A stretch of 64,000 nt of DNA from an uncultured bacterium (GCA_964527215.1 CAZGNZ010000017.1:1610-65609); one strand, 5' to 3'. Numbered from the stretch's first letter, positions 5,030 to 22,265 are shown. The notes: a model not told the origin generated them from the letters alone. Translations and numbers: made by a program.

Positions 5030-6451
5030 ATGCTTGATACCAGACGTGAGGTCCGGCGGCTGTGGGGAAAACTGGAGTTTTCCTCTGTCCGGGCATTCAT
5101 CAAATTCACACTGACGCTTCTCATCAGTTACCTCATTGCCCTTGTACCGGATTATCAGGGGTTGTCGGAAGCCGGTCAGATGACTTTTTTCATTCTTCTT
5201 TCCGCTGCCGGCCTGTGGATCAGCGAGGCAATTCCGGCATTTTCCGTTGCACTGCTGGTGATTGCCATGGAAATATATATTCTCGGAAAGCCCGGCGGAC
5301 CATTTGCTGAATCCGCCAAGGACTGGGAACTGTTTGTTCAGCCTTGGGCCAGCCCGCTGATCTGGCTGTTTTTCAGCGGATTTGTTATGGCTTCTGCAGC
5401 TTCAAAAACCCGGCTGGACCGCTGGCTTGCACGTCATGTTCTGGGCTGGTTCGGCGGACGTCCCAGTCATGTACTGCTGGGTCTGATGATGATTACGTTC
5501 ACATTCTCCATGTTTATGTCCAATACTGCCACCGCTGCCATGATGATGGCGGTTCTGGCACCCATTGTCGGATCCATGGACAATCGTGATCCTTTTGGAA
5601 AAGCCATACTGCTTGGGGTTCCGTTTGCTGCCAACATCGGGGGCATGGGAACCATCATCGGCAGTCCGCCCAATGCCATTGCGGCCGGTTCACTGTCATG
5701 CACTCAGGTCAATTTTGCCACCTGGATGCTGTCCGGTCTGCCGCCGGCCCTGGTTCTTGCCGCCGTCGCGTATTTCTATCTGCTTCGAAAATATCCGTCT
5801 TTTACTGACTCGATTGATATCACGGCCCTTCAGGATCAGTCCTACCAGAGCGCTCAGCTGCCTAACTGGAAAAAACTGCTGGTGATGTTTGTATTCATTT
5901 TAACGGTGCTTCTGTGGATGACCGGTCCGCTGCACGGAATTCCCACAACGGTCGTGTCGTTTATTCCCATTACGGTGTTTTCCGTCGCCCGGGTCACATG
6001 TGTGGATGATATTCGCGGTCTGAGCTGGGAAGTTCTGCTGCTGATGACGGGAGGACTGTCACTGGGAGTGGCTGTCGCCAAAACCGGAGTGGCAGACTGG
6101 CTGGTTCAGATTCTGCCTATTTCAGGAATGGGATTGATTGCCCTGGCATTTACGTTTACCTATCTGGCAACCATCCTGTCAAATTTCATGAGCAATACAG
6201 CCGCTGCCAATATTCTTATACCGATCGGTGTGGCTGCCGGTGCCGGATGTCAGACCCAGGTGGTTATTGCCATCGCCCTGGGTGCCTCGGCCGCCATGTG
6301 CCTGCCGATATCCACACCGCCCAATGCCATTGCATATACTTCCGGGAAACTGCAGTCAAAGGATTTCGTCATTGGCGGAATCATCATCGGCCTGCTTGCT
6401 CCCATTCTGACCGTGCTGTGGTGTTCATTTGTCTGGGGCAAACTGCTGTAA
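5030..6451 (+). CDS. DASS/SLC13-family anion:Na+ symporter (sulfate or di-/tricarboxylate)
   Basis: A 473-aa polytopic protein with the two hairpin SNT motifs (FMSNTATAAMM and FMSNTAAANIL) and PPNAIA repeats. Confidence 0.85.
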   Translation: MLDTRREVRRLWGKLEFSSVRAFIKFTLTLLISYLIALVPDYQGLSEAGQMTFFILLSAAGLWISEAIPAFSVALLVIAMEIYILGKPGGPFAESAKDWELFVQPWASPLIWLFFSGFVMASAASKTRLDRWLARHVLGWFGGRPSHVLLGLMMITFTFSMFMSNTATAAMMMAVLAPIVGSMDNRDPFGKAILLGVPFAANIGGMGTIIGSPPNAIAAGSLSCTQVNFATWMLSGLPPALVLAAVAYFYLLRKYPSFTDSIDITALQDQSYQSAQLPNWKKLLVMFVFILTVLLWMTGPLHGIPTTVVSFIPITVFSVARVTCVDDIRGLSWEVLLLMTGGLSLGVAVAKTGVADWLVQILPISGMGLIALAFTFTYLATILSNFMSNTAAANILIPIGVAAGAGCQTQVVIAIALGASAAMCLPISTPPNAIAYTSGKLQSKDFVIGGIIIGLLAPILTVLWCSFVWGKLL

Positions 6452-6640
6452 ATCATTGATCCGAAATACCCAAACCAGTATTTGCAGAATATTTAGCACG
6501 GATACTTCATAAAGTATCGAAATGAGATGACGAAACCTGTTGATTATGCAGGGCTTGCCAAGAGATTTAAATCCGCCAGTTAACGGGTTCAGTGAAAGGT
6601 ACAATCGAGATAAAACTGTATTGTCGCGCATGTTCTTTTG

Positions 6641-6735: not shown

Positions 6736-6910
6736 CCGGATAATTCATGAGACTTCGTAGTGAGATGATGAAAATGATTGATTCTACAAGGCATATGAAG
6801 AAAAATGAGTGAAATCGTACTGGACAGTACGTTGAGAACATTTTTCGAGTATAACGCTGTAGAATTGAGCAGATCCATCATCGGAATAGATTTCTCATGA
6901 AATATTCGGG
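6736..6910 (-). mobile_element. MITE-like element, copy A (175 bp)
   Basis: Read on the minus strand it is 5'-CCCGAATATTTCATGAG...CTCATGAATTATCCGGG-3', with termini complementary at 15 of 17 positions. TTAG flanks both sides. It is about 95% identical to copy B at 47325-47499, which lies in the opposite orientation. Confidence 0.8.
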
Positions 6911-7095: not shown

Positions 7096-8271
7096 TCAGG
7101 GACTGAGGAGTGTTTCGGGAGCAGTATCCCGGATTTCACCATGTATGGCCTTTCGCAGATCCAGCAGCATTGTCACCGTCATCAGGGGAACATAGCCGTT
7201 TGCCTGAATGGCACGCTGAGTGTTTTCCACCACTTCCAGACACTCGCTCCAGCAGGCATCGGGGAATCGGACCAGCAGTTTTTCATATCTGGGTGCAAAA
7301 TCCCTGAATACCAGATGGTCTTCTGCCGCATTTCGTTCGGCAACCATCAGGTCCCGGAAAAAGAAACCGGCAATCCTGAAAATATTACCCAGTTCATATA
7401 TTCCGCTTTTCTTGCGCGTCCCGATATCCCTGATCAATTTCTGCCAATCTTTTGGATCCGATCTGAAAACTGTTCGGGCGAACAGTTCGACATCGGTAAA
7501 CATTTTTTTCTGATCCTGCACGATGCGCAGCGCCATTCGAATATCTCCTCCGGAAATGTGGGCAGCGGTGCGGGACTGATCAGCGTCTTTTCCCTGACGT
7601 ATCAGATACTCGGTGATTTCACTTTGCTTAAGGGGCGGAAAATAAAACGGCAGGCACCGGGATTTTATGGTGTCCAGGATTTGGTCAATCCGCGATGTAA
7701 CCAGTACAAAAACAGTGTTGGGGGGCGGTTCTTCAAGTATTTTCAGAAGGGCATTGGCTGCTTCCGGCTGCGGGATACACAATTTTTCAGCATCGAAAAT
7801 CAGTATTGCTTTCCATCCCCGATCCGCATGAGACATATAAATACGACGGCGAAGATCCCTTATGGAGTGAATCAGAATGGTATTGGCATTCTCCATCTCT
7901 ATTTTATAATAGGGATTCTGGCTCATTGATTCCATCTTACTGCGCAGTGCCTGTATCTCTTTGCTGCTGAGTCCCTTGAGGGGGGAATCCTCCGGACTCA
8001 GCTCCTTCCGACTGCGCGGAAGAGGCAAAATCAGTTCCACGTTGCCGTGCTGAAAACTGCTCACCTTGCTGCATCCTGGGCAGACCCCGCAAGCACCGTT
8101 CTCATCCGGTTGGTCACAGTTCACCAGCGCTGCAACCTCCAGAGCATACGCCTCCTTACCGGTTCCATGAGGACCGTAAAACAGCAGAGCATGGCTGAAT
8201 TTACGGTTGTGCCAGCTGGCCAATAGCAGTTTCCAGATGCGTGTCTGCGGAATCAAGTCTGAATAAATCAT
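7096..8271 (-). CDS. holB: DNA polymerase III delta' subunit (clamp-loader AAA+)
   Basis: It has GPHGTGKE, the Zn module CDQPDENGACGVCPGCSK, and the SRC motif (IKSRCLPFYF). Confidence 0.85.
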   Translation of the reverse strand: MIYSDLIPQTRIWKLLLASWHNRKFSHALLFYGPHGTGKEAYALEVAALVNCDQPDENGACGVCPGCSKVSSFQHGNVELILPLPRSRKELSPEDSPLKGLSSKEIQALRSKMESMSQNPYYKIEMENANTILIHSIRDLRRRIYMSHADRGWKAILIFDAEKLCIPQPEAANALLKILEEPPPNTVFVLVTSRIDQILDTIKSRCLPFYFPPLKQSEITEYLIRQGKDADQSRTAAHISGGDIRMALRIVQDQKKMFTDVELFARTVFRSDPKDWQKLIRDIGTRKKSGIYELGNIFRIAGFFFRDLMVAERNAAEDHLVFRDFAPRYEKLLVRFPDACWSECLEVVENTQRAIQANGYVPLMTVTMLLDLRKAIHGEIRDTAPETLLSP

Positions 8272-9518
8272 TTTTTACTCAGCCAGTGCTCTGGATTGAA
8301 TTTTTCATTTTCACCCCATACTTCAAAATGGAAATTTGCAGCACCGCCGTTGGCGATTTCGGTCTTGCTGACTTTTGCGATGAGCATCCCTGATTTCACA
8401 TATTCCTTCTCTGTAACCTGAATCTGATCTACATTGGCATACACGGTATGATAGCCGGAACCGTGCGAAATGATGATCACCTGCTTATATCCGTGCAGAA
8501 AACTGACACGGGATACGATACCATCCAAAACGGTGACAATATCAGAACCGGGTGCAGCTTTCAGGTCGATACCGGGATTTTCGGTTTTTGTTTTCAGGGC
8601 TTCATTGTACTGAATACCGTATTGGTTGACAATTTGCCCGGATACCGGCCAAGGCAGTCTGCCGCGCAAGTCCTTGAAATTTCCTTCCGTGGCCATCTGC
8701 TGAGCTTCACGGATTCGGACCAGTTCCGCCTCGTATTCCTGAGCGGAGGATTTATCTTTCAACAGCTGTTTGATGAGGTTTTCAAGCTCTGCAACCATCT
8801 GTTTTTTTGAGTTCAGCTGTTTTTCAAGGCCTGATTTTTCAGATTCCAGTTGTTTCTTAAAAGTATCCCGCCGGGCTTTGTCAGCAACCATGTTTTCGTT
8901 TTCCCGGTTTTTTTCATCCCGCAGCTTTTGAACATTCACCAATTCCTGATTGTATGATTCCGTTTCTGCCTCCAGCTCCTGAACGGTCTGTTCAATGTGA
9001 TGCATCAGGGTATCTTTATGGCGATTGATGGATTCAAGATATTTTACCCGATAAACCATATCATCCCAGTTTTCTGACAGGAGCAAAATTTCCAGAAAGG
9101 TGGGTTTACCGGATTTATAGAGATAGACAACCACATCACGCAGTTTCAGCTGCAGCGAGGACAGGCTGCCGTTTTTTTCCTCAATGGCATTCTGCGTGAT
9201 CTCTATCTGATCCCGAATCAGTCTCTCCTCCCGACTGAGAGACCGGACCAGTTTCTCGGTCAATTGGATTTTGTGATCAAGATCACGAATAATGCTTTCC
9301 ACAGAATAGGCGGCCCGTTCCTTTTCCTGAATCTGCCGCTCAAGCTGCTGAACTTCCGCTCTCAGGCTGATAAGATCGGTGTGCTGATGATCAATATCTT
9401 TCTGGATTTCCCAGGATGCCCGGTGTTCCTGATTCCAAACCAGGGTCAGACACAGCAGACAAAAAATGAAGTAAATAAATTTTTGCATCGTTAACCAGAC
9501 AAAATTAGCAATATCCAT
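8268..9518 (-). CDS. EnvC-like coiled-coil protein with a degenerate LytM/M23 domain (murein hydrolase activator type)
   Basis: It has a signal/TM segment, then a long coiled coil, then a C-terminal M23 fold. The metal ligands are degenerate: NPGIDL replaces HxxxD and NFHFE replaces HxH. Its end overlaps the holB start by 4 nt. Confidence 0.75.
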   Translation of the reverse strand: MDIANFVWLTMQKFIYFIFCLLCLTLVWNQEHRASWEIQKDIDHQHTDLISLRAEVQQLERQIQEKERAAYSVESIIRDLDHKIQLTEKLVRSLSREERLIRDQIEITQNAIEEKNGSLSSLQLKLRDVVVYLYKSGKPTFLEILLLSENWDDMVYRVKYLESINRHKDTLMHHIEQTVQELEAETESYNQELVNVQKLRDEKNRENENMVADKARRDTFKKQLESEKSGLEKQLNSKKQMVAELENLIKQLLKDKSSAQEYEAELVRIREAQQMATEGNFKDLRGRLPWPVSGQIVNQYGIQYNEALKTKTENPGIDLKAAPGSDIVTVLDGIVSRVSFLHGYKQVIIISHGSGYHTVYANVDQIQVTEKEYVKSGMLIAKVSKTEIANGGAANFHFEVWGENEKFNPEHWLSKK

Positions 9519-9636
9519 CCAAGTTTTGGGATGCTTTTCCGCTGGCCTTGTTAAAGGTCAAATCTGACCAAAACGTTTATACAATACTCGTACTTATCTG
9601 ATACAATTTTCTTGTACAGCTGCCCCGGCAGAGCGC

Positions 9637-9774
9637 TGACAATTTTGTATGTTTTGTCTCCGAGGTGCTGTCACTGGTCAAAAACGTCGTCCCTTCAGGA
9701 CTTGAATCCTTCCCTCTTTCTCTCCGGTGGCTGAAGCCACCGGCTGGACAACCATTCCCCTTCGGGGAATAAAG
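9637..9774. repeat. Array unit X1 (5'-truncated, 3 substitutions relative to X2-X4)
   Basis: Aligns to offsets 19-156 of unit X. The differences are T/C, T/C and C/T in ...GTCTCCGAGG...CACTGGTCAAAAA. Confidence 0.9.
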
Positions 9775-10042
9775 AGAATTCGATGGTTTTCCGGCAGAGC
9801 AAACCACATCTTCAATGGGATTTCCGAAGTAATACTCATCAACGGACTCAGTGACGCAGAAGCATAGGTTAAATTCATTCTGCGCAGGGATTCATCTGTC
9901 TGCCTGGCTCGTAAAAATGATCCCGGCAGGGATCAGGGTATGCAGCCGGTGGCTTCAGCCACCGGTACGGGAAGTACAATATCGCAGTCCTGAAAGGACG
10001 ACGTTAAATTGACGGACAACCATTCCCCTTCGGGGAATAAAG
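9775..10042. repeat. Array unit Y1 (268 nt)
   Basis: Starts AGAATTCGATGGTTTTCCGGCAGAGC and ends GACAACCATTCCCCTTCGGGGAATAAAG. Identical to Y2. Confidence 0.9.
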
Positions 10043-10198
10043 AAAGTACGATGGTTTTAGTGACAATTTTGTATGTTTTGTCCCCGAGGTGCTGTCACCG
10101 GTTAAAAACGTCGTCCCTTCAGGACTTGAATCCTTCCCTCTTTCTCTCCGGTGGCTGAAGCCACCGGCTGGACAACCATTCCCCTTCGGGGAATAAAG
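10043..10198. repeat. Array unit X2 (156 nt)
   Basis: Starts AAAGTACGATGGTTTTAGTGACAATTTTG and ends ...GACAACCATTCCCCTTCGGGGAATAAAG. Identical to X3 and X4. Confidence 0.9.
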
Positions 10199-10354
10199 AA
10201 AGTACGATGGTTTTAGTGACAATTTTGTATGTTTTGTCCCCGAGGTGCTGTCACCGGTTAAAAACGTCGTCCCTTCAGGACTTGAATCCTTCCCTCTTTC
10301 TCTCCGGTGGCTGAAGCCACCGGCTGGACAACCATTCCCCTTCGGGGAATAAAG
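10199..10354. repeat. Array unit X3 (156 nt)
   Basis: Identical to X2, producing an X-X doublet. Confidence 0.9.
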
Positions 10355-10622
10355 AGAATTCGATGGTTTTCCGGCAGAGCAAACCACATCTTCAATGGGA
10401 TTTCCGAAGTAATACTCATCAACGGACTCAGTGACGCAGAAGCATAGGTTAAATTCATTCTGCGCAGGGATTCATCTGTCTGCCTGGCTCGTAAAAATGA
10501 TCCCGGCAGGGATCAGGGTATGCAGCCGGTGGCTTCAGCCACCGGTACGGGAAGTACAATATCGCAGTCCTGAAAGGACGACGTTAAATTGACGGACAAC
10601 CATTCCCCTTCGGGGAATAAAG
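10355..10622. repeat. Array unit Y2 (268 nt)
   Basis: Identical to Y1. Confidence 0.9.
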
Positions 10623-10778
10623 AAAGTACGATGGTTTTAGTGACAATTTTGTATGTTTTGTCCCCGAGGTGCTGTCACCGGTTAAAAACGTCGTCCCTTC
10701 AGGACTTGAATCCTTCCCTCTTTCTCTCCGGTGGCTGAAGCCACCGGCTGGACAACCATTCCCCTTCGGGGAATAAAG
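10623..10778. repeat. Array unit X4 (156 nt)
   Basis: Identical to X2 and X3. Confidence 0.9.
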
Positions 10779-11047
10779 AGAATTCGATGGTTTTCCGGCA
10801 GAGCAAACCACATCTTCAATGGGATTTCCGAAGTAATACTCATCAACGGACTCAGTGACGCAGAAGCATAGGTTAAATTCATTCTGCGCAGGGATTCATC
10901 TGTCTGCCTGGCTCGTAAAAATGATCCCGGCAGGGATCAGGGTATGCAGCCGGTGGCTTCAGCCACCGGTACGGGAAGTACAATATCGCAGTCCTGAAAG
11001 GACGACGTTAAATTGACGGACAACCATTCCCCTTCAGGGAAATAAAG
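10779..11047. repeat. Array unit Y3 (269 nt, last hairpin degenerate)
   Basis: Identical to Y1 and Y2 except at the end, where CCCCTTCAGGGAAATAAAG replaces CCCCTTCGGGGAATAAAG. Confidence 0.9.
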
Positions 11048-11299
11048 AGAAACGGCTCTGTGCGGCAAAAAGAACCCTGTGTTCCGGCGGACTTTTCCGC
11101 TCAGATTTTCCCAAAAAGGGAATTCGTCGGCAGGTGTGAATTTCAACCGGATCGTAATTCCTTTATTTCCAATGCGATTATTGTTCTCCGGATTTTCAGG
11201 AATCCGTTTTGAGGGACGGTGCACTTTTTGGCATTGTTGTTGCGAAAAGAATGACAAATTTCATTTCTATTAAAATTCCTTTGTCGGAGATACTCAAAT

Positions 11300-11611
11300 A
11301 TGGATCAGAAACAAATCAGTTCGGGACAAAGCCTGAATAATATGATTGAACAGGAACGAATCACTGCAATCCACGAAATTATCACAACCGTTAACCATGA
11401 AATCAATAACCCGCTTACAGCCATTATCGGCAATACTGAATTGCTTGATCTGGAGCTGAAATCCGGTAATCATCAAAAATTGGCCTCCGCATTGGATTCC
11501 ATCGCCTCTGCGGCCCAACAAATAAAACAAGTCACTCAACAATTAGCCAACATTACCTCATCAAAGACTGAGATCTACGCCGGTCGAAGTCGCATGACCA
11601 GTTTGTCCTGA
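11300..11611 (+). CDS. Orphan HisKA/DHp-only protein (103 aa, no ATPase domain)
   Basis: It has an H-box-like VNHEINNPLTAIIGNTELLDLEL followed by a second helix (ALDSIASAAQQIKQVTQQLANI). An intrinsic terminator follows directly. Confidence 0.65.
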   Translation: MDQKQISSGQSLNNMIEQERITAIHEIITTVNHEINNPLTAIIGNTELLDLELKSGNHQKLASALDSIASAAQQIKQVTQQLANITSSKTEIYAGRSRMTSLS

Positions 11612-11647
11612 CCACCATCAACAGGACAGATGCTGACTCGTTTTAGG

Positions 11648-11675
11648 GGCTGCCGGTACCGGCAGCCTTTTTTTT
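11648..11675 (+). terminator. Rho-independent terminator of the DHp-only gene
   Basis: The stem is GGCTGCCGG-TA-CCGGCAGCC, followed by TTTTTTTT. Confidence 0.85.
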
Positions 11676-11751: not shown

Positions 11752-14259
11752 TTACCCGGTCTCTGCTGAGGGTATTTTCACCCTCAATGTCGTGCCTTTG
11801 TCAAGTTCACTCTCCACCTCAATCACACCGTTGAACTCCTTGACAATTCCATGAACAATTGAGAGTCCCAGCCCGGTACCTTCACCCACTTCCTTGGTTG
11901 TGAAAAAAGGTTCAAGGCAGCGCTGTTTTGCAGACTCAGACATACCAATCCCATTGTCTGTAACCTCAAACACGGCAAATGGTGATCCTTCATGATGAAA
12001 AAGATGCAGGCCAATTTCAGGGCTGTACGCAGTGATTTTTCCCTGTTTTCTTTTGGATTCCACTGCAAACCTGGCATTGGACATGAAATTCACAACGATC
12101 TGCTGGAATTCCTGGGGATTGACAAGAACCAGCGGAAGGTGATCCTGAATTTCAATGTTTAATTTGATATTATGGACTTTAAACTGCTGCTGGAAAAAGA
12201 CAAGACTTTCGCGTACAGGCTGTATCAGATTGATCCGGTCCGTGGGACTGGAGGATTTCCGGGAAAAATTACGCATATGGGTAATAATGTCTGACGCTCT
12301 TCGGACCTGATTTAATATCAGATCCATATCGTTCATGGTTGTTTCCGGGATATTCTTCATGTTTCGAAACTGAAGCTTGAGAAGTTCTACCTGAGCCTGA
12401 ATGATGGCCAGGGGCTGATTCAGTTCATGAGCCACGCCGGTCGCCATCTCACCCAGTGAAGCCAGTCGGCTCGAATGCACCAGCTGAGCCTGTTTTTCCT
12501 GCAGTTCCAATGACCGTTCCTTTACCATTTCCTCCAAATGATCACGGTATTTTTCCAGTTCGGATTCATTCCTTTTCTGCCGTGTGATATCATTCCCGAT
12601 GACGACTGCGCCCTCGATCTCATTCCGGTCATTCATCAGAGGAACGGCAGAATTTAAAATAATCTTTGATTCCCCGTCCTGACTGTGAATCTGGACCGGT
12701 TCATTTAAGGTGGTGATCCCTGACTCACAGGCTTTGGCGGATGCCCATTCATGAGGCTCAATTTTCTTACCGCTGTCAAGAAACCAGCCGTCATATTCAA
12801 AGTCATCAAGGCTGTTGTTCAGTTCCGGAACTGCCCATATCCTCCGGCTTGCCAGATTGTCGCTGACCACATTCCCTTTTTTATCGGTGATCCAGACACC
12901 CACAGGCAGAATTTTCAAAACCTTCCGAATTCGCTCTTCATTTTCCCTCAGTGCCCGGCTGGCTTCCTGACGCTCCAGAAATACAGACAGCAGCTCACTG
13001 ATTACAATCAGTACCCTCTGTTCGTGTTCGTACCACTTTCGGGAGCTCAGATGATCCTCCACCACCAGATAGCTGTGCGGTTTTTCACGAAAAAGGACTG
13101 GTACTGCCATAAGCGCACGAAGTTCGGTTTTCCGGAACCACTCCACCATGACAGTATCCGAAGCAGGTACATTTTTTGAGCTTCTGATAATAACGGCCTC
13201 GCTCTGCCTGAATCGATCCATTATCCGGTGTCCCAGTTCATTCTGACGGCTCGGGAAAAAAATAGAATCCACCATAGGCTGATCCGGATTCATCCAGGTT
13301 GAACCGCCGGGAAAATCAGTCACATTATCATCCAAAGATACGATGGTCACCCTGCTGGCTTTCATTGTGGTTCCCATCAGTTTCATCAGTTGAGGGAAAT
13401 CCGGAGTATCGCCGGAAGCAAACAGACGGGATGCCCTGGCAATGGCTTCCTCCAGCATCAGATGATGAGTGATAATTTTTTCTGATTTTTTCCGTCTGGA
13501 AATATCTGTGGTCAGCACGACAATTTTGGATACTTCGCCGTCTCTGCCGTACAAAGCATAAAAATACTGTGATATCCAGGTGGCTTTACCCGGCCGGTTT
13601 TTATGCAGCCTCATTTCAGGGATATGATACTCACCCCCATTCTCGTAAACTTCCCGAACACCGGCAGCATGCTCACCCAGGTAAGAATCCCGTTGATCCA
13701 GACGGAACTGTTCGCGGGGTTCAAAATACTGAGCCAGATCCTCATCCGGAATGGCCCATATCTCTCGCCAGGCTCGATTGACGATCAGCAGCTGTCCATT
13801 TTTCTCCCGGATGGAAATACCGATGGGTGAGTTTTCGATCACAACGCGGATTAAGCCCTCGTACCCGTCTTTAATGCTGCCGGATATCTGCTGATCCATT
13901 TCCAGCGTCCGGTTGACCCGTGTCAGCTCCTGCCTGAGTTCAGCCTTTTCCAACGCAATCCTGAGAACCTGGACCGCCGGTTCAAGATATTTTTCCAGTA
14001 ATCCCTGATCTTTCTGGGCCATGCTGTCCATTGTCAGAAAACCGTATTTTCTGAAAAGGGTCTGAATTGGCATCCATCCGCTCGTGTCAGCATCAGAAAA
14101 AAGTTCCGAAGCCTGACGAAATTTCATATCGACGCCGTAACGATCCAGCAGATTGATAAAATTCTGGATGATCTGCCCCGGTTCCTCATCTTTGGATAAC
14201 TGGTAAATATGATCAATCAGATCAGGTATCTCTTTTAAAATGGTTTTATTAAAAGGCAT
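11752..14259 (-). CDS. Sensor histidine kinase HK1 (PAS-GAF-PAS-HisKA-HATPase)
   Basis: H-box LGEMATGVAHELNQPL, N-box NFMSNARFAV, G1 DNGIGM, G2 GTGLGLSIV, with upstream PAS- and GAF-like segments. Confidence 0.9.
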   Translation of the reverse strand: MPFNKTILKEIPDLIDHIYQLSKDEEPGQIIQNFINLLDRYGVDMKFRQASELFSDADTSGWMPIQTLFRKYGFLTMDSMAQKDQGLLEKYLEPAVQVLRIALEKAELRQELTRVNRTLEMDQQISGSIKDGYEGLIRVVIENSPIGISIREKNGQLLIVNRAWREIWAIPDEDLAQYFEPREQFRLDQRDSYLGEHAAGVREVYENGGEYHIPEMRLHKNRPGKATWISQYFYALYGRDGEVSKIVVLTTDISRRKKSEKIITHHLMLEEAIARASRLFASGDTPDFPQLMKLMGTTMKASRVTIVSLDDNVTDFPGGSTWMNPDQPMVDSIFFPSRQNELGHRIMDRFRQSEAVIIRSSKNVPASDTVMVEWFRKTELRALMAVPVLFREKPHSYLVVEDHLSSRKWYEHEQRVLIVISELLSVFLERQEASRALRENEERIRKVLKILPVGVWITDKKGNVVSDNLASRRIWAVPELNNSLDDFEYDGWFLDSGKKIEPHEWASAKACESGITTLNEPVQIHSQDGESKIILNSAVPLMNDRNEIEGAVVIGNDITRQKRNESELEKYRDHLEEMVKERSLELQEKQAQLVHSSRLASLGEMATGVAHELNQPLAIIQAQVELLKLQFRNMKNIPETTMNDMDLILNQVRRASDIITHMRNFSRKSSSPTDRINLIQPVRESLVFFQQQFKVHNIKLNIEIQDHLPLVLVNPQEFQQIVVNFMSNARFAVESKRKQGKITAYSPEIGLHLFHHEGSPFAVFEVTDNGIGMSESAKQRCLEPFFTTKEVGEGTGLGLSIVHGIVKEFNGVIEVESELDKGTTLRVKIPSAETG

Positions 14260-14379
14260 TGAATCCTCTCTCCAATTTGATCATATCCAACCGTTTCAAT
14301 CGATTGATCCGGATTTCGTTGGGTATTCTGCCAAGGTCCGGCCTGATGCCGCCAATGGGTATTTTCGGAATCATTGGTT

Positions 14380-17300
14380 TCAGTTGGTTTCCGGTGCGAT
14401 TCCCGCTGGGATGGCAATTCTAAACTCCGTCCCATTACCCGGAGCGGAATCCACCATCAGCTGTCCCTGGAATTCGCGAATGATATTGTGCACAATGGAA
14501 AGTCCCAGTCCGGTTCCTTCACCAACTTCCTTTGTCGTGAAAAACGGTTCAATGCAGTGTTCCTTCTCGTCCGGAGACATTCCGATTCCATTGTCGGCAA
14601 CCTCAATGACCACGGAGTCTTCAGATTCAGAGAAAAAGCTGCGGATCGTCACAATCCGCTGATACCCCGGTCCTGCATTTTCCGCCATTTTATCTACGGC
14701 ATACCGGGCATTGGACATGAAATTGACAATCACCTGTTCCAGTTTCTGCGGATTAATTCGAACCTTGGGCAAATTGGCTTCCTGCTCAACCTTCAGGTCA
14801 ATATCATTGACCCGGAACTGCTCACGGAAAAATACCAGGCTGCCGTTTACGGGATCGGCAATATCCACAAGCTCTGGATAGGACATTGTTTTTCGCGCAA
14901 ACCCCCGCATATGATCGATTATCCGGGTGGCTCTTTCGACTTCGTTGATGATGTTGTCAAGATCCCGATCCATCTCATTGCCCTGGTCTTGTTTGCAGTA
15001 TATCATTTTAAGAAGCTCCGCCTGAGCCCGAATGATGGAAAGAGGCTGGTTTAGCTCATGAGCCACCCCTGTGGCCATTTCACCCAGGGAAGCCAATCTT
15101 CCGGAATGAGCAAGCTGAGCCTGTTTTTCCTGCAGTTCCTTTGTACGCTGCTCTACCAGATCCTGAAGATGTTCCTGATAATTGGACAGCTCCTTTTCTT
15201 TCTGCTTTCGATCCGTGATATCCCGGTAAATACCGTAAACAGCCAGCTGACTGTTATCCAGAATAATTGGAGCTCCCGTCACGGAAACATCTATCGGCTG
15301 ATTATTTTTATTTTTCCGAACTGTCTCAAATTCCACCAGCTTTCCGTCCAAAACAACCTGTGTGGTTTCCAGGCTTTCCGCTTCCCTGCCTTCGGGAATG
15401 ATCAGATCATTGATGCATCTGCCGTGGAGCTCTGCCCGGCTGTACCCAAAAAGCTCAATGAAACGGATATTGGCCATAATGATGGAGTTGTTCATATCCA
15501 GCAGAACAATAGCATCCGGTGATGAGGCAAACAGTTTTTCAAAATAGGTTTTTTGCACTCGAAGCTGATTTTCAGCCTGCCATCTATCCGTAATATCTTC
15601 ACCGGAACTGAGGGTGCCCGTAATCTGTCCGCTTTCATCTCTGATGATACTGTCTCTCCACGCGATGATGCGCTCGAATCCCTCCCGTGTTGTAATGGGA
15701 TTGGTGTATTGCGGGCGCGGTTCACGCTTTCCGGTTACTATTTCCTGAAAATCCCTGTGAACTTTATCGCGGATTGAGTCCTCTATGAAGCAGTTAAACC
15801 AGTTTTTTCCAACAATTTCATTTCGCGGAAGCTCCAGGATTTCCTGGCCTTTGCGATTGATCTGAAGCACTGCACCGGTACAGTCCAAAATAAGGATGAT
15901 AACCCCGGCGATATCCAAATAAGTCTGAACTTTTTCTTTTTCTTTTCGAAGCTCGTTTTCCGTTTGACGCTGTTTTGTGACATCCATGACCAGTTCCACT
16001 GTTCCGATCACTTCACCCGTCCTGCCAATTACCGGCTGAATTCGAACACTGTACAGTTTGCTGTCACTCTCACAAATCGATTCTATTTCAACGGGCGTTC
16101 GAGTTTCCATTACCTGTTGAAAATCGCAGTCGCCGCTTATCGCATTCTTGTTTATGATTTCATCATAGCAGGGTCGGGTCGGCATTTCGTCAAAAGCCTG
16201 CTTCTGTTCAGAAGATGGATGATTGGTCCAGACGACATTCAGTTTCCGGTCCCGGAATACAATGTATTTGTAGATGCTTGCCAGTATCGCTGCTTTTTCG
16301 TATTCGCTGCGCAGCAAGGCATTATGGGTTTCAGACTGCTCTGTTATATCCTGAATGACCGTAACAATATGGCATACCCGGCCATCTTCAAACAACGGGA
16401 TTTTCCTGATCTCAGTAATCAATGTTTCCCCGTTAAAATTTAACCGGTCGGTTTTGATGATTTTCTCCCCGGTTCTGAATATGCTCTGATACTCGGACCG
16501 GCTTTTCTCGTCAATCATCGGATACGTTTCGAACAGATTCTCCCCGATGGGATTGAGATTCAGCTCCAGTTTCTTATGCAGTTTCAGCTGTGTCTGGTTT
16601 ATATCCACAATTCTGAATTCCGGATCAATCAGGAAAATACCATCAGTCATAGAGTCCACCATCTTATGGTATTTTTCCTTTTCCCAGCGCAGGTCTTTTG
16701 AAGCATTAACTTTCTCGGAAATATCACGGCATATGGATAAAACGGCGGGTGTATTCCGGTAGGTAAATGGAACGGCAGAGGTTTCAACATCCAGAACCTG
16801 TCCCTGAATGTTGATAAACTTCTGCGCTATCGAGGGCATTACTATTCCTTCGTTCAGAGTTCGGCGGATACGGTCCATGACCTGTTCATAACTGTTTTGT
16901 TGGATAAAATCTGTAATGGGCCGGCCGTATAGGTCCTCGGGATTGTCAGCGCCGGTCAGTTTCAGAGCTGCCGGATTGCAGTAAACAAGTTTGCCGTCTA
17001 TATGAATACCCACCGCATCCGGCAGTGCTTCAACCAGACAACGGTATTTTTTTTCATTTTCCTCCAGTATTTCCTGATATTCGATTCTATCTGTCACATC
17101 CCGAATAATACCGATCACACCGAATTTATAATTCTGCATTGAAGTGCGAATTTCCAGGTGCCGGTTATTGTATTCCAGGGCAAACCAGGGAACGGCGGTG
17201 CCTGTGAGCCCCTGTCGAACCATTTTGAGTATACCGGGAATTTGGGCTTTGGACAGATGTCTGCGAACGAGAGAAAATACAGATTGATCGATGACGTCTT

Positions 17301-17871
17301 CCGCTGAAAGCCCGGTCATTTCACTGAAAGCCCTGTTCACCTCCAAAACCTTTCCGGCAAGTGAAACCAAAACGATACCGTCTCCGGCATTCTGGAAAAA
17401 ACCGACATATTTTCGGTAAAGGGCTTCAAAATCCGGATCAGGCTGGTTACTTCTGTTCCGCTGGCTTTCGTGTTCATTCTGCATGACAGACAGCCGCATC
17501 AGGGTCCTGATACCAGACCGCACTGCGCTGCGCGGGACTGGAACCGGGTAGATCAATTCTGGCTCTGCACCCGCCACTGCTTCTGTAAGTTCAGAATCCG
17601 CATCCCGGGGCATGAACACCGTTACAGGGATCAGTTCTGAAACTGGATTTTCAGAAAGCGTCTGCAGGTCCCTGACGACGTCCTCTGTTCCTGCATGAAT
17701 GCGGACATCATAAAAGAGCAGGTTTGTTTTTTCTTTACCGGTCGAATTCAGGAATTGGTTCAGTGAAGTGACCCATTCTGTTTCAGAGGACGAATCTGAC
17801 ACTTCCTGAACAATATCCGACAGCAGTTCCATCAGTTCAGAATCACCTGAAATCACTGCTGTGCGGCTCAT
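14380..17871 (-). CDS. Sensor histidine kinase HK2 (N-terminal receiver-like domain, about six PAS-like modules, HisKA-HATPase)
   Basis: H-box LGEMATGVAHELNQPL, NFMSNARYAV, DNGIGM, GTGLGLSIV, with repeated PAS S-box-like segments. Its start overlaps the HK3 stop by 4 nt. Confidence 0.9.
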   Translation of the reverse strand: MSRTAVISGDSELMELLSDIVQEVSDSSSETEWVTSLNQFLNSTGKEKTNLLFYDVRIHAGTEDVVRDLQTLSENPVSELIPVTVFMPRDADSELTEAVAGAEPELIYPVPVPRSAVRSGIRTLMRLSVMQNEHESQRNRSNQPDPDFEALYRKYVGFFQNAGDGIVLVSLAGKVLEVNRAFSEMTGLSAEDVIDQSVFSLVRRHLSKAQIPGILKMVRQGLTGTAVPWFALEYNNRHLEIRTSMQNYKFGVIGIIRDVTDRIEYQEILEENEKKYRCLVEALPDAVGIHIDGKLVYCNPAALKLTGADNPEDLYGRPITDFIQQNSYEQVMDRIRRTLNEGIVMPSIAQKFINIQGQVLDVETSAVPFTYRNTPAVLSICRDISEKVNASKDLRWEKEKYHKMVDSMTDGIFLIDPEFRIVDINQTQLKLHKKLELNLNPIGENLFETYPMIDEKSRSEYQSIFRTGEKIIKTDRLNFNGETLITEIRKIPLFEDGRVCHIVTVIQDITEQSETHNALLRSEYEKAAILASIYKYIVFRDRKLNVVWTNHPSSEQKQAFDEMPTRPCYDEIINKNAISGDCDFQQVMETRTPVEIESICESDSKLYSVRIQPVIGRTGEVIGTVELVMDVTKQRQTENELRKEKEKVQTYLDIAGVIILILDCTGAVLQINRKGQEILELPRNEIVGKNWFNCFIEDSIRDKVHRDFQEIVTGKREPRPQYTNPITTREGFERIIAWRDSIIRDESGQITGTLSSGEDITDRWQAENQLRVQKTYFEKLFASSPDAIVLLDMNNSIIMANIRFIELFGYSRAELHGRCINDLIIPEGREAESLETTQVVLDGKLVEFETVRKNKNNQPIDVSVTGAPIILDNSQLAVYGIYRDITDRKQKEKELSNYQEHLQDLVEQRTKELQEKQAQLAHSGRLASLGEMATGVAHELNQPLSIIRAQAELLKMIYCKQDQGNEMDRDLDNIINEVERATRIIDHMRGFARKTMSYPELVDIADPVNGSLVFFREQFRVNDIDLKVEQEANLPKVRINPQKLEQVIVNFMSNARYAVDKMAENAGPGYQRIVTIRSFFSESEDSVVIEVADNGIGMSPDEKEHCIEPFFTTKEVGEGTGLGLSIVHNIIREFQGQLMVDSAPGNGTEFRIAIPAGIAPETN

Positions 17872-20800
17872 AATACCTTCCCTGAACCCTCTGGAATCAG
17901 ATGGGATGAATAATCAGGAGGACAGGCCGGGAAACTGATACTGACTGTTGTGCCCTGGTTTTTTTTACTGCTGATATATATAGAACCACCGAATTCACGA
18001 ACAATACTGTGAGAAATGGACAGACCCAATCCTGTTCCGACACCCACTTCTTTGGTGGTGAAAAAGGGTTCCATGCATTTCTGTTTTTCTTCCGGGTTCA
18101 TTCCAATTCCATTGTCAACCACTTTTATGGTCACATAATTTGTGAATGAATTTTCAATCGTTGTCAAACAGATTTTCATTTCCGCTCGGTTCGTATCCCG
18201 GCTTTCCACAGCGTACCGGGCATTGGACATGAGGTTTACAATCACCTGTTCCAGTTTCTGAGGATCTATCAAAATCTGAGGGAGGTTGTCTGCCAGTGAC
18301 AGCTCAAGCTGGATTCCGTGCGCCCGAAACTGTTCCTTGAAAAAAATGAGGGTCTGATTGAGAAGGAAATTTACATCGCAGGGATCGGCGGGCTGTCCCT
18401 CTTTCCGGGAAAAACTGCGCATTACACTGATAATTTTTGCAGCCCGGTCCACCTGATCCATAATTTTATCAAAATCCTTCAGTTGAGCCGGACTCATCAA
18501 ATTTCGGTTTTTACTTTGCAGGCGCAGCAGTTCTGCCTGCATTCGAATGATAGACAGGGGCTGATTGAGTTCATGGGCAACACCGGCAGCCATTTCACCC
18601 AGAGCCACCAGCCGTCCGCTGTGGACCAGCTGAGCCTGATGTTCTTTCAGTTTTTTCTGTATCTCTTTCGCCTCTGTAATATCCATCAGGAAGGAGCGAA
18701 TTTCGGCATGATCGGATTCGACATCCGGATAATATCGGGTTAATTCATAAATCCAGAAAATCCGGTCGTGATGCTGAATCCGGTATTCCTGTTCAAGCAC
18801 TCCCTGGGGCTTTGAAAGATATTCCTTCAGTTTACCCTGGACCTCCGCGGAGTCATCAGGGAATACAAGTTCGCGCAGATCCAGGCCGCCTTCAAGAAAT
18901 GCATTGCGTTCAAGTTCAAGCTGAGTAATATTCGGGGACACGTACCTCAAATGAGCCTGATCAGGCGGATTCCAGTCCCACTGGAATACAATGATAGGTC
19001 CTTCAATGAATAAATCCCGTTCTCTCTCCAATTCCCTGTTGATTACATCCAGTTCTTCCGTCCGCTTCTGTACCAGATTTTTCAGATTCTGCTTTTGCCG
19101 GTTGATATACCGGGTGCGGAAATTAATGCTGCCAAGGATTATCAGAATCACTGCCAGGACCAGAAAAATTCTGAACGGTGCGGTTCTCCAGATCGGCGGG
19201 TGTATCAGCACATTCAGCATAATCCCCTCATCGTTCCAGACACCGTCGTCATTGGAGGCCTTCACTCGAAATGTGTAGCTTCCTCCGGGCAGACTGGTAT
19301 ATGTGGCAATACGCCTGTTCCCGACGTAATTCCAATCCTTTTCAAACCCTTCCAGGTAGTAGGCATACAGGTTTCTTTCAGGCTGATTAAAAGACAGTGC
19401 CGAAAACTCAAATGAAATCACGTAGTCATCATAATTCAGTTCAATTGTATCCGTATGAAGGATTGATTTATGCAGGATTTCCCTGCCGTCATCCATTTCC
19501 CCAATGGGGACCGGCTGATTAAACAGGCTGAATCCCGTGATTTTAACAGGCGGGCTGAACGGATTCAGCGTCACATCAAGCGGGTTGAAAGCATTGAGTC
19601 CGTTAATCCCGCCAAAATAGAATGTACCGCTGTCTCCTCTGTGATACGCACCGGCGTTGAACTCGTTGCTCTGCAGCCCATCTGATTTATTGAAATACCT
19701 GAACTGTCCGTCATCGGGATTCATTCGGCAGAGACCGTTGTTGGTACTCATCCACAAACATCCGCTGTCATCGCGAATTGTACCATAGACAACATCGCTG
19801 GGAAGCCCGGAAAAGGTTGTATAGGTATCAAATATTCCGCTGATGGGGTCCAGCCGGATCAGCCCTCCGCCATACGTGCCAATCCACAGCATCGTACCGT
19901 CATTGTAGAGGGAAAGAACATCATGACTGCGTTCTGCACGGAGATATTTTCGCTGAAAGTTATGGTGTATCAAATGGCCCGGCTGTTCGGGAGTCATTTC
20001 AAAAACCCCACGGCTGTTGGTGCCGATCCAATAATGTCCGTTCTGATCCTGGGTCATGCAGGTGACGCCATATTTCAGCGGGGAATCAGCTGTTCCCGGA
20101 TCGGAGGGATAATTCCACCAAAGCCCGGCCTCGGGCTGGTAACGCGAGATACCCCTTCCTGTGGACATCCACAAGGTGTTTTCATTATCCTCAAAAATAT
20201 GATACACGCTGTTATCCAGAAGACTGTTTGGATTTTTCGGCTGATGGAAAAAACGCTGAAATGAATCCGTCTCGGGCTGATACCGATTTAAACCGTTGTC
20301 AGTTGCAACCCATATGGATTGGTCACGACTCTGGTAAATAAACCAGATTACATCAGAACTGACGGTGGTGGAATCCTCCGGAATATGGGTTTTGGTTTTA
20401 AACTCATCCGTACCAGATTCCAGAATATTGATACCGCCGAAAGTGCCGACCCAAAGCGACCCGTCTGACATCTCAAACATGGTGTAAACATGCTTGTCAG
20501 TAAGCAGATCGGGATTTCGAGGTGTGTTGTGAAATACCTTGAATTTTCGGGCGTGGGGGGCATAATAGCTGAGACCGGATCCAATTGTTCCAAACCAGAC
20601 AATTCCCTCTGCATCTTCAAAAATGGTCAGTATGACATCCCCGCAGATGGTGGAACCATCGTAGGGATCATGAAAAAAACGCGTGAAGGTTCCCTGCTCC
20701 CGGTTCAGGATATTCAGACCGTCGGAGGTCGCTATCCAGAATATTCCCCTGCTGTCTTCAAAGAAATTATAAACATAATTACAGCTCAGCGATGTCTCAT

Positions 20801-21599
20801 CACCGGGATCATTCAGATAACTCTGAAATCCATCCGTCTCAGGCAGATAGCGGCTGATTCCCCCATTTTCAGTGCCAATCCAGAGATTCTTCTGACGATC
20901 AGAATACACACAATAGATGGAATTATCCTGAACAGCATTGGGGTTTCCCGGGTCTGCCGGGTAATGGATGAATGTACTGTCAACAGGATTGAACCGGTCC
21001 AGCCCATTACTGGTCCCGATCCACAGGTTTCCGGCAGAATCAAAACTCAGGGTTGTGACAAGGTCTGAAATCAGGCTGCCCGGATCATCATCCCGGTGCC
21101 GGAATCTTCGAGCGGTGTTCCGATTGGTGTCAAGACATGCAAGACCGCCGTCAACAGAAGCAATCCACAGTGTACCGTCTTCATCCTCCGCCATCCACCA
21201 GATCGATTTTCCGGTTTGTCCCTGGAGACTGTCGGAATCGCTGGAATACCGGATGAATGACTCCCTTTCAGGATCATATCGGTTCATCCCTCCCCATTGA
21301 GTTCCCAGCCACATGCGGGATTTTCGGTCCATAAAGATATGAAACACAGACAGATGACTGAGTGTTGTTGAATCGCCGTATTCCGGCGTAAACACTTTGA
21401 ACTGCTGACCGTCATAGCGGTTGAGACCTTCCTCTGTTCCAAACCAGAGAAAGCCGCTGGAATCTTGATTTATGGCGTAAATGGTATTCTGGGAAAGGCC
21501 GTCATCAATATTGACATGTTTAAATTCAATATCCCTGTATTGCCCGGCAGCAACAGATAACAAGCAAAATATGAGCCCAATTCCAAACGTCTTATTCAT
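17868..21599 (-). CDS. Sensor histidine kinase HK3 with a periplasmic two-component-regulator beta-propeller plus Y_Y_Y domain
   Basis: It has a signal peptide and many repeats of the type WIGT..GL.R(Y/F). These are followed by a Y_Y_Y-like segment (YAYYLEGFEKDWNYVG...YTFRVKASN), one TM helix, a PAS-like domain, the H-box LGEMAAGVAHELNQPL and an HATPase domain. It lacks the REC and AraC outputs of classical Bacteroidetes HTCS proteins. Confidence 0.9.
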   Translation of the reverse strand: MNKTFGIGLIFCLLSVAAGQYRDIEFKHVNIDDGLSQNTIYAINQDSSGFLWFGTEEGLNRYDGQQFKVFTPEYGDSTTLSHLSVFHIFMDRKSRMWLGTQWGGMNRYDPERESFIRYSSDSDSLQGQTGKSIWWMAEDEDGTLWIASVDGGLACLDTNRNTARRFRHRDDDPGSLISDLVTTLSFDSAGNLWIGTSNGLDRFNPVDSTFIHYPADPGNPNAVQDNSIYCVYSDRQKNLWIGTENGGISRYLPETDGFQSYLNDPGDETSLSCNYVYNFFEDSRGIFWIATSDGLNILNREQGTFTRFFHDPYDGSTICGDVILTIFEDAEGIVWFGTIGSGLSYYAPHARKFKVFHNTPRNPDLLTDKHVYTMFEMSDGSLWVGTFGGINILESGTDEFKTKTHIPEDSTTVSSDVIWFIYQSRDQSIWVATDNGLNRYQPETDSFQRFFHQPKNPNSLLDNSVYHIFEDNENTLWMSTGRGISRYQPEAGLWWNYPSDPGTADSPLKYGVTCMTQDQNGHYWIGTNSRGVFEMTPEQPGHLIHHNFQRKYLRAERSHDVLSLYNDGTMLWIGTYGGGLIRLDPISGIFDTYTTFSGLPSDVVYGTIRDDSGCLWMSTNNGLCRMNPDDGQFRYFNKSDGLQSNEFNAGAYHRGDSGTFYFGGINGLNAFNPLDVTLNPFSPPVKITGFSLFNQPVPIGEMDDGREILHKSILHTDTIELNYDDYVISFEFSALSFNQPERNLYAYYLEGFEKDWNYVGNRRIATYTSLPGGSYTFRVKASNDDGVWNDEGIMLNVLIHPPIWRTAPFRIFLVLAVILIILGSINFRTRYINRQKQNLKNLVQKRTEELDVINRELERERDLFIEGPIIVFQWDWNPPDQAHLRYVSPNITQLELERNAFLEGGLDLRELVFPDDSAEVQGKLKEYLSKPQGVLEQEYRIQHHDRIFWIYELTRYYPDVESDHAEIRSFLMDITEAKEIQKKLKEHQAQLVHSGRLVALGEMAAGVAHELNQPLSIIRMQAELLRLQSKNRNLMSPAQLKDFDKIMDQVDRAAKIISVMRSFSRKEGQPADPCDVNFLLNQTLIFFKEQFRAHGIQLELSLADNLPQILIDPQKLEQVIVNLMSNARYAVESRDTNRAEMKICLTTIENSFTNYVTIKVVDNGIGMNPEEKQKCMEPFFTTKEVGVGTGLGLSISHSIVREFGGSIYISSKKNQGTTVSISFPACPPDYSSHLIPEGSGKVL

Positions 21600-21809
21600 A
21601 AACAGGCAATTATAAAATCAAAAACTGCAGAACCTACATACTGCACTGCAGCAGGAAATCAGCGTGTAAAAACAGTGACGATGTATTATGGATTAAGGGG
21701 GGAGCCTAATTTAACGGTATTCGATTTATTAAAACCACAAGAAGATTTCTCGAACCTGAAATCCGCACATTCGGCCGCAGCGTTTATAAATCAGCCGACC
21801 CATTGCTGC

Positions 21810-21948
21810 CCCGCATATTTCTCGAAAATATGCATGCGTAAAATGCTTCGCATATTCCGGACGATAGTATATCTGGTCGATTCTGTTTCAATTACGCTCG
21901 ATATCTGTTCTCATTTTACTGTCCGTACAATGTCGATGAATTTCCCTG
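21810..21948 (+). mobile_element. MITE-like element, variant copy D (boundaries approximate)
   Basis: It aligns to the reverse complement of copy C (CATGCGTAAAATGCTTCGCAT...CAATTACGCTCGATAT). The terminal motifs are degenerate. CTGC is present on both flanks (21806-21809 and 21949-21952). Confidence 0.6.
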
Positions 21949-22075
21949 CTGCAGGAAAAGAACCAGAGTAATACGTGCTGCAGATCAATTTTATCTCGAT
22001 TGAATCCGTCAGTGGGCGGATTTTTAATCCGTCTCCTGACGGACAAGTGTAACTGGGTGCATTCCCCGCCGCTTG

Positions 22076-22171
22076 TTTGAAATCCGCCATTTGGCGTGGC
22101 GGCGAAATAAAAAATGATTATATCACTAATGATACCCCGTCCCGTCGGCTGACGGGCGGGGAAATTCATTA
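22076..22171 (+). repeat. Short intergenic repeat family E, copy 1
   Basis: AAATCCGCCATTTGGCGTGGCGGCGAAAT...CCGTCCCGTCGGCTGACGGGCGGGGAAATTCATTA is shared with 31341-31436. It contains two GC-rich hairpins. Confidence 0.8.
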
Positions 22172-22265
22172 TTTCTATGTGTGAGATTCAGTAAACCATT
22201 GTTGAAATCCGTCTGTGATCGAGAGCGGATCAGGTGTATTTTGGACAGACTGGTGTGATCCGGTT

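Follow-up and report, generated by a model that had tools for sequence, protein, structure and literature searches.

It is worth asking what kind of object the inverted repeats in this stretch of DNA from an uncultured bacterium really are. The stretch analysed, which we call the window, is 64,000 nucleotides (64 kb) long. The original prediction described arms of 61-62 nt that link each X to the following Y, and read them either as RNA, with a long helix closing a 196-nt domain, or as DNA, with the arms as ends of an excisable or invertible unit. We argue that the array is instead most probably a transposase-less cluster of seven IS200/IS605-family end modules, similar to REP/BIME repeats or TIRtrons. 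The basis for this is observed: the repeats belong to a family, the members have a three-hairpin structure, they are consistently associated with a transposase, and they also occur as doublets, singles and clusters without one.

The outer module AACGTCGTCCYTTCAGGACT and the inner module CCGGTGGCTGAAGCCACCGGCTG each have 7 exact matches in the 64-kb window, and 0 are expected by chance. For both, the four X copies are on the + strand and the three Y copies on the - strand, confined to 9683-11009, and the order of the cluster is X> <Y X> X> <Y X> <Y. Once Y is reverse-complemented, it and X prove to be paralogous forms of a single unit of ~91 nt. The unit runs hairpin 1, a variable centre of ~20 nt, hairpin 2, a CTATACGAC-type linker and hairpin 3. 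The predicted arm sequences and coordinates are therefore borne out, with 7 copies of each module and an arm gap of 196 nt (9747-9942), and X2 does lack a partner since the next unit is an X and not a Y. The complementary outer segment and the perfectly paired inner segment also hold. A repeat search gives 95% complementarity for the 20-nt outer arms (9683-9702 and 9986-10005) and perfect complementarity for the inner 23 nt. The centres are unrelated; X centre TTGAATCCTTCCCTCTTTCTCT and reverse-complemented Y centre TGCGATATTGTACTTCCCGTA have only CTTCCC in common. The extent of the arms has to be revised. There are conserved helices around a diverged centre as proposed, but the arms end before the third hairpin of the unit.

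Both conserved segments are self-pairing (GTCC-loop-GGAC and CCGGTGGC-TGAA-GCCACCGG), so much of the X-Y "inverted repeat" is what two copies of a self-complementary module look like on opposite strands. The copies are genuinely inverted nonetheless, because the loops (TGAA/TTCA and CTTCA/TGAAA) and the flanks (CTG/CAG and AACGTC/GACGTT) are inverted with them. The third hairpin is CCCCTTCGGGG in X and GATCCCTGCCGGGATC in Y. These are not complementary to each other, and each pairs locally. Every X runs on the + strand into a 45-nt R element that contains CCCCTTCGGGG and provides its hairpin 3 and tail, and downstream of each Y on the - strand is TGATCCCTGCCGGGATCATTTTT. "Orphan" R copies adjoin the 5' end of each Y. 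The features are collected in Table 1.

Table 1. Features of the array and its neighbours in the window, and Acido-Lenti-1 matches in related loci
Feature	Coordinates	Strand	Remarks
M23 peptidase gene	8268-9518	-	Array neighbour
Whole cluster	9620-11062		
Outer module AACGTCGTCCYTTCAGGACT, starts	9683, 10107, 10263, 10687	+	
Outer module AACGTCGTCCYTTCAGGACT, ends	10005, 10585, 11009	-	
Unit X1	9683-9773	+	Covariance model R1 89 bits, E 8e-23; modules exact; three hairpins as ssDNA; parts: GTCC/GGAC, 22-nt pyrimidine-rich centre, CCGGTGGC/GCCACCGG, linker, TTCCCC/GGGGAA
45-nt R element GGACAACCATTCCCCTTCGGGGAATAAAGA..ATGGTTTT	9746-9790	+	Repeat family of 7 copies; alignment
R elements of the other X units	10170-10214, 10326-10370, 10750-10794		
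"Orphan" R copies	10014-10058, 10594-10638, 11018-11062		Last copy degenerate (67%)
Segment between outer tails of convergent X-> <-Y	9791-9914; identical 10371-10494, 10795-10918		Begins CCGGCAGAGC
Unit Y1	9915-10005	-	R1 77.7 bits, E 1e-19; X1-like architecture
Hairpin 3 of Y1	9935-9918 (terminator-scan match)	-	TGATCCCTGCCGGGATCA then TTTTT; intrinsic-terminator-like
Spacer (101 nt) of divergent Y<- ->X pair	10006-10106; repeated 10586-10686		Orphan R plus segment P
Unit X2	10107-10197	+	R1 89 bits; no following Y
Unit X3	10263-10353	+	R1 89 bits
Unit Y2	10495-10585	-	R1 77.7 bits
Unit X4	10687-10777	+	R1 89 bits
Unit Y3	10919-11009	-	R1 77.7 bits
Stand-alone HisKA protein gene (103 aa)	11300-11611	+	Array neighbour
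Acido-Lenti-1 match, L016	1507-1552	-	Inside full three-hairpin unit
Acido-Lenti-1 match, L020	1386-1431	-	Inside full three-hairpin unit
Acido-Lenti-1 match, L065	53-99	+	Inside full three-hairpin unit

Tandem repetition in the array follows two periods, one of 424 nt (99% matches) and one of 156 nt (98% matches). These repeats are 98-100% identical and there is an R element at every junction, which points to recent recombination or slippage rather than repeated transposition. It must be noted that the 10-nt CCGGCAGAGC is found at 9625-9634, 9791-9800, 10371-10380 and 10795-10804, where 0.12 matches are expected by chance. It precedes the first P-X-R block, directly follows every R(a) element and brackets the first 156-nt block. 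This direct repeat may be a scar left by duplication, or it may mark an element junction.

The next question is which of the possible structures has been conserved. The units fold into three hairpins as ssDNA on either strand. In an independent MAFFT alignment of 28 units, pairing holds in 92.5% of the cells, with double changes in 6 pairs. In the model-fitted alignment of 109 distinct metagenome units 93.5% of the cells are paired, there are double changes in 11 of the 18 pairs, and none of 500 shuffles reaches the observed score. The three local hairpins are supported by compensatory changes. The original prediction had left it open whether X and Y form local hairpins or one bipartite helix (17 + 23 bp) closing a 196-nt RNA domain; the compensatory changes back the former, and the long helix is less conserved. 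In 37 inverted neighbour pairs the pairing within units exceeds the complementarity between them for every helix (98.3 versus 94.9%, 99.8 versus 90.5% and 83.1 versus 63.3%). Since pairing is kept better within a unit than between neighbours, the long X-Y helix is not the conserved structure. One can point to the MFE fold of the 319-nt stretch 9685-10003, which does use the long helix whichever strand is folded (-143.8 and -146.4 kcal/mol, z about -9). However, any inverted duplicate yields such a fold. The long helix also leaves out hairpin 3, and the units it would join are often single, with partners at any distance and in any orientation. The 124-nt inter-tail segment 9791-9914 has no counterpart in the related loci inspected, and what remains of the 196-nt interior belongs to the units themselves (hairpin 3 and tails). 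We give the long helix almost no credence.

Relatives of the unit were collected in two scans. The first was an exact-pattern search with the outer module, using one genome per species, and it gave 16 loci, mostly from Desulfobulbales and other Desulfobacterota MAGs. These copies are dispersed, often over 3-4 contigs per genome, and are frequently at contig ends. After the module, 14 of the 16 loci have a variable stretch of 19-26 nt, CCGGTGG(Y)TNAA(R)CCACCGG, CTATAYGAC (the CTATACGAC-type linker) and a small GC hairpin. L016 and L020 have a second hairpin that differs in sequence, and their full layout is visible only with a covariance model. The second scan searched metagenome contigs with hairpin 2 and gave 80 further loci. 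Covariance model R1 was built from 28 units. It recovers exactly seven units in the window, and over the whole 64 kb it finds this single cluster without dispersed copies. It has 52 matches in the first locus set and recovers 113 units in the 80 metagenome loci. The total is >140 copies across Desulfobacterota, Acidobacteriota, Bacteroidota and metagenome contigs, and members of the module family are found in at least four phyla. The window's AtpA (58371-59897, +) is closest to Marinimicrobia/FCB/Fidelibacterota MAG proteins (~81%, and 93% to one short contig), whereas the carriers of the unit are mostly Desulfobacterota, the others being Acidobacteriota and Bacteroidota. This implies that the element family has spread across phyla. 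The termini vary between subfamilies. We considered CTGCC...GGCAG as shared termini, but it is present in the window and one MAG and missing from other subfamilies. No close relatives of the X or Y centres were found among the 95 of 113 metagenome unit centres that could be extracted. Calling X a right-end type and Y a left-end type would depend on the first five centre bases (TTGAA), which is too weak.

L013 has two outward-facing units with an ORF of 150 aa between them, and this ORF encodes a Y1 transposase (Pfam Y1_Tnp, E 2.7e-26). It scores 76.7 bits against the NCBIfam model transpos_IS200 (cut-off 55) and 31.3 bits against the RAYT model NF047646, below the cut-off of 80. Its PDB relatives are the ISHp608 transposase and others deposited merely as "transposase". 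Ten intact tnpA genes were examined (L013, L022-L025, L035, L038, L050, L055 and L056; 65-100% identity, or 65-78% for the nine other than L013). All ten are flanked on each side by a unit, and the two units are inverted, with hairpin 1 towards the gene. Upstream, hairpin 1 is on the opposite strand, 17-20 nt from the ATG; downstream it is on the same strand, 8-10 nt past the stop, and hairpin 3 faces outward. Truncated tnpA remnants lie beside units in L008, L010, L015, L019, L081 and L093, of which L008 is an internal-deletion derivative. The L013 protein has 1612 homologues at E<=1e-30, mostly on ~1-kb contigs. Such contigs are typical of collapsed repeats and, together with the remnants, suggest that the gene itself is multi-copy. 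The repeat still outnumbers the gene, with 113 units to about 10 tnpA genes in the 80 metagenome loci.

An alignment of 9 TnpA homologues of 150 aa has the motifs DH[IVL]H, SWQ.GY and RY[VI]..Q..HH. In the classification of TnpA-Y1 proteins, subclass 1.2 is defined by DH[IV]H, WQ and Y---Q--HH, a length of about 148 aa and the absence of extra domains (Quentin et al. 2018, PMC6006769, Table 1). Judged by these motifs, the associated TnpA appears to be subclass-1.2-like. No REPs or terminal structures were reported for that subclass (Quentin et al. 2018, PMC6006769). In the L013 protein itself (5962-6414, -) QIH replaces the first histidine of the HUH motif, and the eight other homologues have DH[IVL]H, so this particular copy may be inactive.

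The arrangement of the units tells how they should be paired. The unit is single in 44 of the 90 loci. Among neighbouring units over these loci we count 44 divergent pairs, 15 convergent and 3 tandem, and 3 of the 15 convergent pairs are the window's own X-Y pairs. Partners are anywhere from -2 to >2000 nt apart in any orientation. In other words, units occur independently of the inverted X-Y relationship, an outcome that the original prediction had itself named as refuting, and one at odds with a helix that needs both. The divergent gaps include two groups, one of 23 cases at -2 to 29 nt that is free of genes and one of 10 cases at 459-501 nt with tnpA inside each. Reading the arms as ends of an excisable unit was thus right in that the module flanks a Y1 transposase in 10 of 10 intact copies, but the wrong arms had been paired. 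The convergent X-> 196 nt <-Y is not the element pair, since the units that bracket the transposase, like those that make up the dispersed transposase-less doublets, are divergent (<-unit ... unit->). The layout of the parent element is present in the window as Y<- 101 nt ->X, and the position of this 101-nt spacer is that of tnpA in autonomous relatives. No tnpA remnant is detectable in the spacer, as its local alignments to six tnpA regions do not exceed those of shuffles. A short ORF in it that starts MVLVTILYVLSPR was considered as such a remnant, but its relatedness is unconvincing. A tblastn search with TnpA gives only noise across the 64-kb window, so no transposase gene is present there.

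Doublets and clusters of this kind are found elsewhere. In the MAG CSMAG_1789 a divergent doublet of ~273 bp, bounded by CTGCCCTTTACCC...GGGTAAAGGGCAG, has unrelated flanks in four contigs, so this doublet is a dispersed unit. Mixed clusters like the one in the window adjoin tnpA in L022, L024, L025 and L056. A few single loci deserve mention in their own right. L022 has chimeric units (1961-2062 and 1115-1216) in which a right-end-type module 1 and centre are joined at hairpin 2 to a reverse-complemented left-end type. This is the product expected from a central deletion of a convergent pair, and it recalls the "double foot" REPs (Quentin et al. 2018). In L006 the 19-nt spacer of the divergent units (2519-2537) recurs exactly past the right-hand unit (2642-2660), which suggests that this doublet belongs to a longer tandem structure. 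In L072 a unit (6747-6839) lies ~270 nt downstream of a tmRNA gene (6103-6474). The tmRNA gene is a classic integration hot spot.

Could the arms be something other than ends cut by a Y1 enzyme? One can imagine them as sites of a conservative site-specific recombinase, the array being a promoter switch that inverts or a cassette that can be excised. They could also be MITE termini mobilised by a DDE transposase. Inverted repeats with conserved flanks and a variable core would fit, and so would a cluster between two divergent genes, a place at which a switch might have an effect. The CCGGCAGAGC direct repeat in the window and an apparent 8-bp direct repeat, AGCTAGGC, at the L007 doublet could be taken the same way. 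As a target-site duplication, however, AGCTAGGC is ambiguous. It overlaps a palindrome (AGCT), it is unmatched in sister copies, and the terminal inverted repeat may extend through it. None of the unit-bearing loci examined has a serine or tyrosine recombinase or a DDE transposase next to it, and the Y1/HUH transposase is the only recurrently associated gene. Recombinase sites or DDE termini are therefore highly improbable.

The cluster takes up most of the 1.78 kb that separate two divergently transcribed genes, one encoding an M23 peptidase and the other a stand-alone HisKA protein. Around it the window is ordinary chromosome, with holB (DNA polymerase III delta'-like), proS, secD, nrdJ, atpA and very large PAS histidine kinases. 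The best homologue of the M23 peptidase has 45% identity (Marinimicrobia MAGs). The loci of such homologues retain the M23 peptidase-holB pair, but they have no upstream array and no units. As a separate matter, the HisKA protein is DHp-only, has its own terminator (11645-11670) and adjoins four consecutive PAS-rich histidine kinases of 835, 1163, 1243 and 1037 aa (11752-25379, -). It could be a phosphotransfer or kinase-modulating partner.

An Rfam scan of the window has nothing at gathering, only sub-threshold matches to Acido-Lenti-1, P26 and similar. The window units score 13.5-15.9 bits against Acido-Lenti-1, below its gathering score of 37. L016, L020 and L065 are above it, with 45.2, 44.7 and 45.3 bits. 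In each of these three loci the match covers hairpin 2, linker and hairpin 3 of a complete unit. L016 is from Blastocatellia, and its unit belongs to a divergent doublet with 8 nt between the units, L020 is from Bacteroidales, and in L065 the match shares its contig with a unit-flanked homologue of the Y1 TnpA. Acido-Lenti-1 (RF01687) entered the literature as a probable sRNA of unknown function (Weinberg et al. 2010, PMC2864571), and it is still treated as an sRNA in later discussion. It shares with the unit an 8-bp hairpin, a CUAUA..ACGUC linker and a GUCCUUUCAGGAC hairpin. It differs in that the Rfam model spans hairpins 2-3 only and that the sRNA annotation has no link to a transposase. 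Acido-Lenti-1 is probably part of a transposon-end or REP-like DNA repeat.

This bears on another explanation, that X and Y are paralogous small-RNA genes amplified in tandem. Each RNA would have a hairpin scaffold for protein binding, a variable single-stranded "seed" and a terminator, and the seed of X would be C/U-rich and anti-Shine-Dalgarno-like. The own-strand fold does read hairpin, single strand, hairpin, terminal hairpin. The RNA of Y1 on the - strand folds at -38.4 kcal/mol (z -5.5) and ends in GAUCCCUGCCGGGAUCAUUUUU, conservation begins sharply at AACGUC, and the related Acido-Lenti-1 is catalogued as a probable RNA (PMC2864571). Y has a good intrinsic terminator, X a partial one. 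However, hairpin 3 usually lacks a U-run in the relatives, the upstream sequence is wholly different between subfamilies, and a sigma-70 promoter scan finds nothing at the units. Candidate sigma-54, sigma-28 and Bacteroidetes-type -7 motifs picked out by eye have the wrong spacing or are unconserved, and a "conserved upstream box", TTGGTTAATGTGCTTCCCAT, is really the tnpA start on the opposite strand. The 5' ends in 23 doublets are -2 to 29 nt apart, so there is no room for promoters between them. The units systematically bracket a transposase gene, and ssDNA hairpins account for the covariation equally well. On balance we think small-RNA genes unlikely here, though the transposon ends could conceivably have some RNA role as well.

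If the units are transposon ends, it is worth considering which known system they resemble. The nearest published ones are REP/BIME/REPIN systems with RAYTs, and the TIRtrons. The REP/BIME repeats, REPINs and REPtrons of Proteobacteria, in which the RAYT is TnpA-REP, are also short hairpin repeats with a conserved unpaired 5' tag (PMC3116915, PMC3337134, PMC5581495, PMC6006769). They too form singles, inverted doublets and clusters of alternating orientation with fixed linkers, and as inverted repeats they flank a Y1/HUH transposase gene that they far outnumber. The unit here is bigger, however: it has ~91 nt, three hairpins and a variable centre, versus one hairpin of 20-40 nt. The canonical tag GT[AG]G is missing; units begin AACGTC-GTCC and there is no GTAG or GTGG at any hairpin foot. 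The TnpA is short and IS200-like (Y---Q--HH; RYV.EQ..HH) and not of class 2 with Y---NP like the RAYTs. CGTC-tagged REPs share their tag with our units, which have an unpaired CGTC ahead of hairpin 1 (AA-CGTC-GTCC...). CGTC REP families 1-4 have 8-9-bp stems that start A-T, a 4-5-nt loop, a CCA tail and no associated transposase (Di Nocera et al. 2013), whereas the stem here is 4-5 bp (GTCC/GGAC), lacks the CCA tail and is transposase-associated.

TIRtrons are Y1 genes (TIRYTs) with long TIRs, some of them "double palindromic", whose repeat families are single, dimeric or grouped (Di Nocera et al. 2013, PMC3733652). Here too long inverted terminal repeats (~90 nt) with self-complementary tracts bracket a Y1 gene and are also found alone, as dimers and in groups. 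Most TIRYTs are of subclass 2.1, about 238 aa, with HTH tails and a GGGGWSAS motif (PMC6006769), but our TnpA is 150 aa with subclass-1.2-like motifs, and GGGGWSAS is not seen in the units. As for IS200/IS605 (IS608, ISDra2), the TnpA passes the NCBIfam IS200 model and resembles ISHp608 TnpA in sequence. There are subterminal hairpins by the gene, and deletion derivatives retain only the ends (L008 and the doublets). Canonical members have non-inverted ends with one imperfect hairpin each, on one strand, and here the ends are inverted three-hairpin copies.

Our scenario for the window array as a cluster of such ends would be as follows. The autonomous parent element would be the 150-aa Y1 (HUH) transposase gene bracketed by two inverted modules. 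By analogy with the TnpAs of IS608 and ISDra2 and with E. coli TnpA-REP, the enzyme would bind the hairpins while the DNA is single-stranded at the replication fork. Its HUH/Tyr active site would, on the same analogy, cut and rejoin nearby, moving or amplifying modules in trans. The array in the window would then have expanded by recent homologous or slipped-strand duplication between R elements, and the inverted relationship of X and Y would be inherited from the left-end/right-end layout of the parent.

A bolder proposal is that the unit is a programmable module, with the conserved hairpins as a handle and the ~20-nt centre as an insertion specifier or RNA seed. We consider this quite improbable, but its consequences are worth stating. 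The hairpins would be a handle for the transposase (or for an RNA chaperone), and a lineage- or end-specific centre would set the cut or insertion site. IS608 uses a 4-nt DNA "guide", and the centre would extend it. If the centre is instead a transcribed seed, such arrays would be domesticated banks of regulatory RNA, and the Acido-Lenti-1 "sRNAs" would be the same in other phyla.

The array is ordinary in kind. Most probably it consists of mobile-element ends and is neither a new RNA domain nor a genetic switch. For the window this removes the reading as a large structured RNA or an invertible switch, and leaves a 1.4-kb array of mobile-element debris in a promoter-bearing intergenic region. 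If Acido-Lenti-1 is a DNA repeat, the annotation of its matches would change. What is new is that subclass-1.2-like TnpAs, reported without terminal structures, are bracketed by an inverted three-hairpin module in Desulfobacterota and elsewhere, and that this module also multiplies without the transposase gene.
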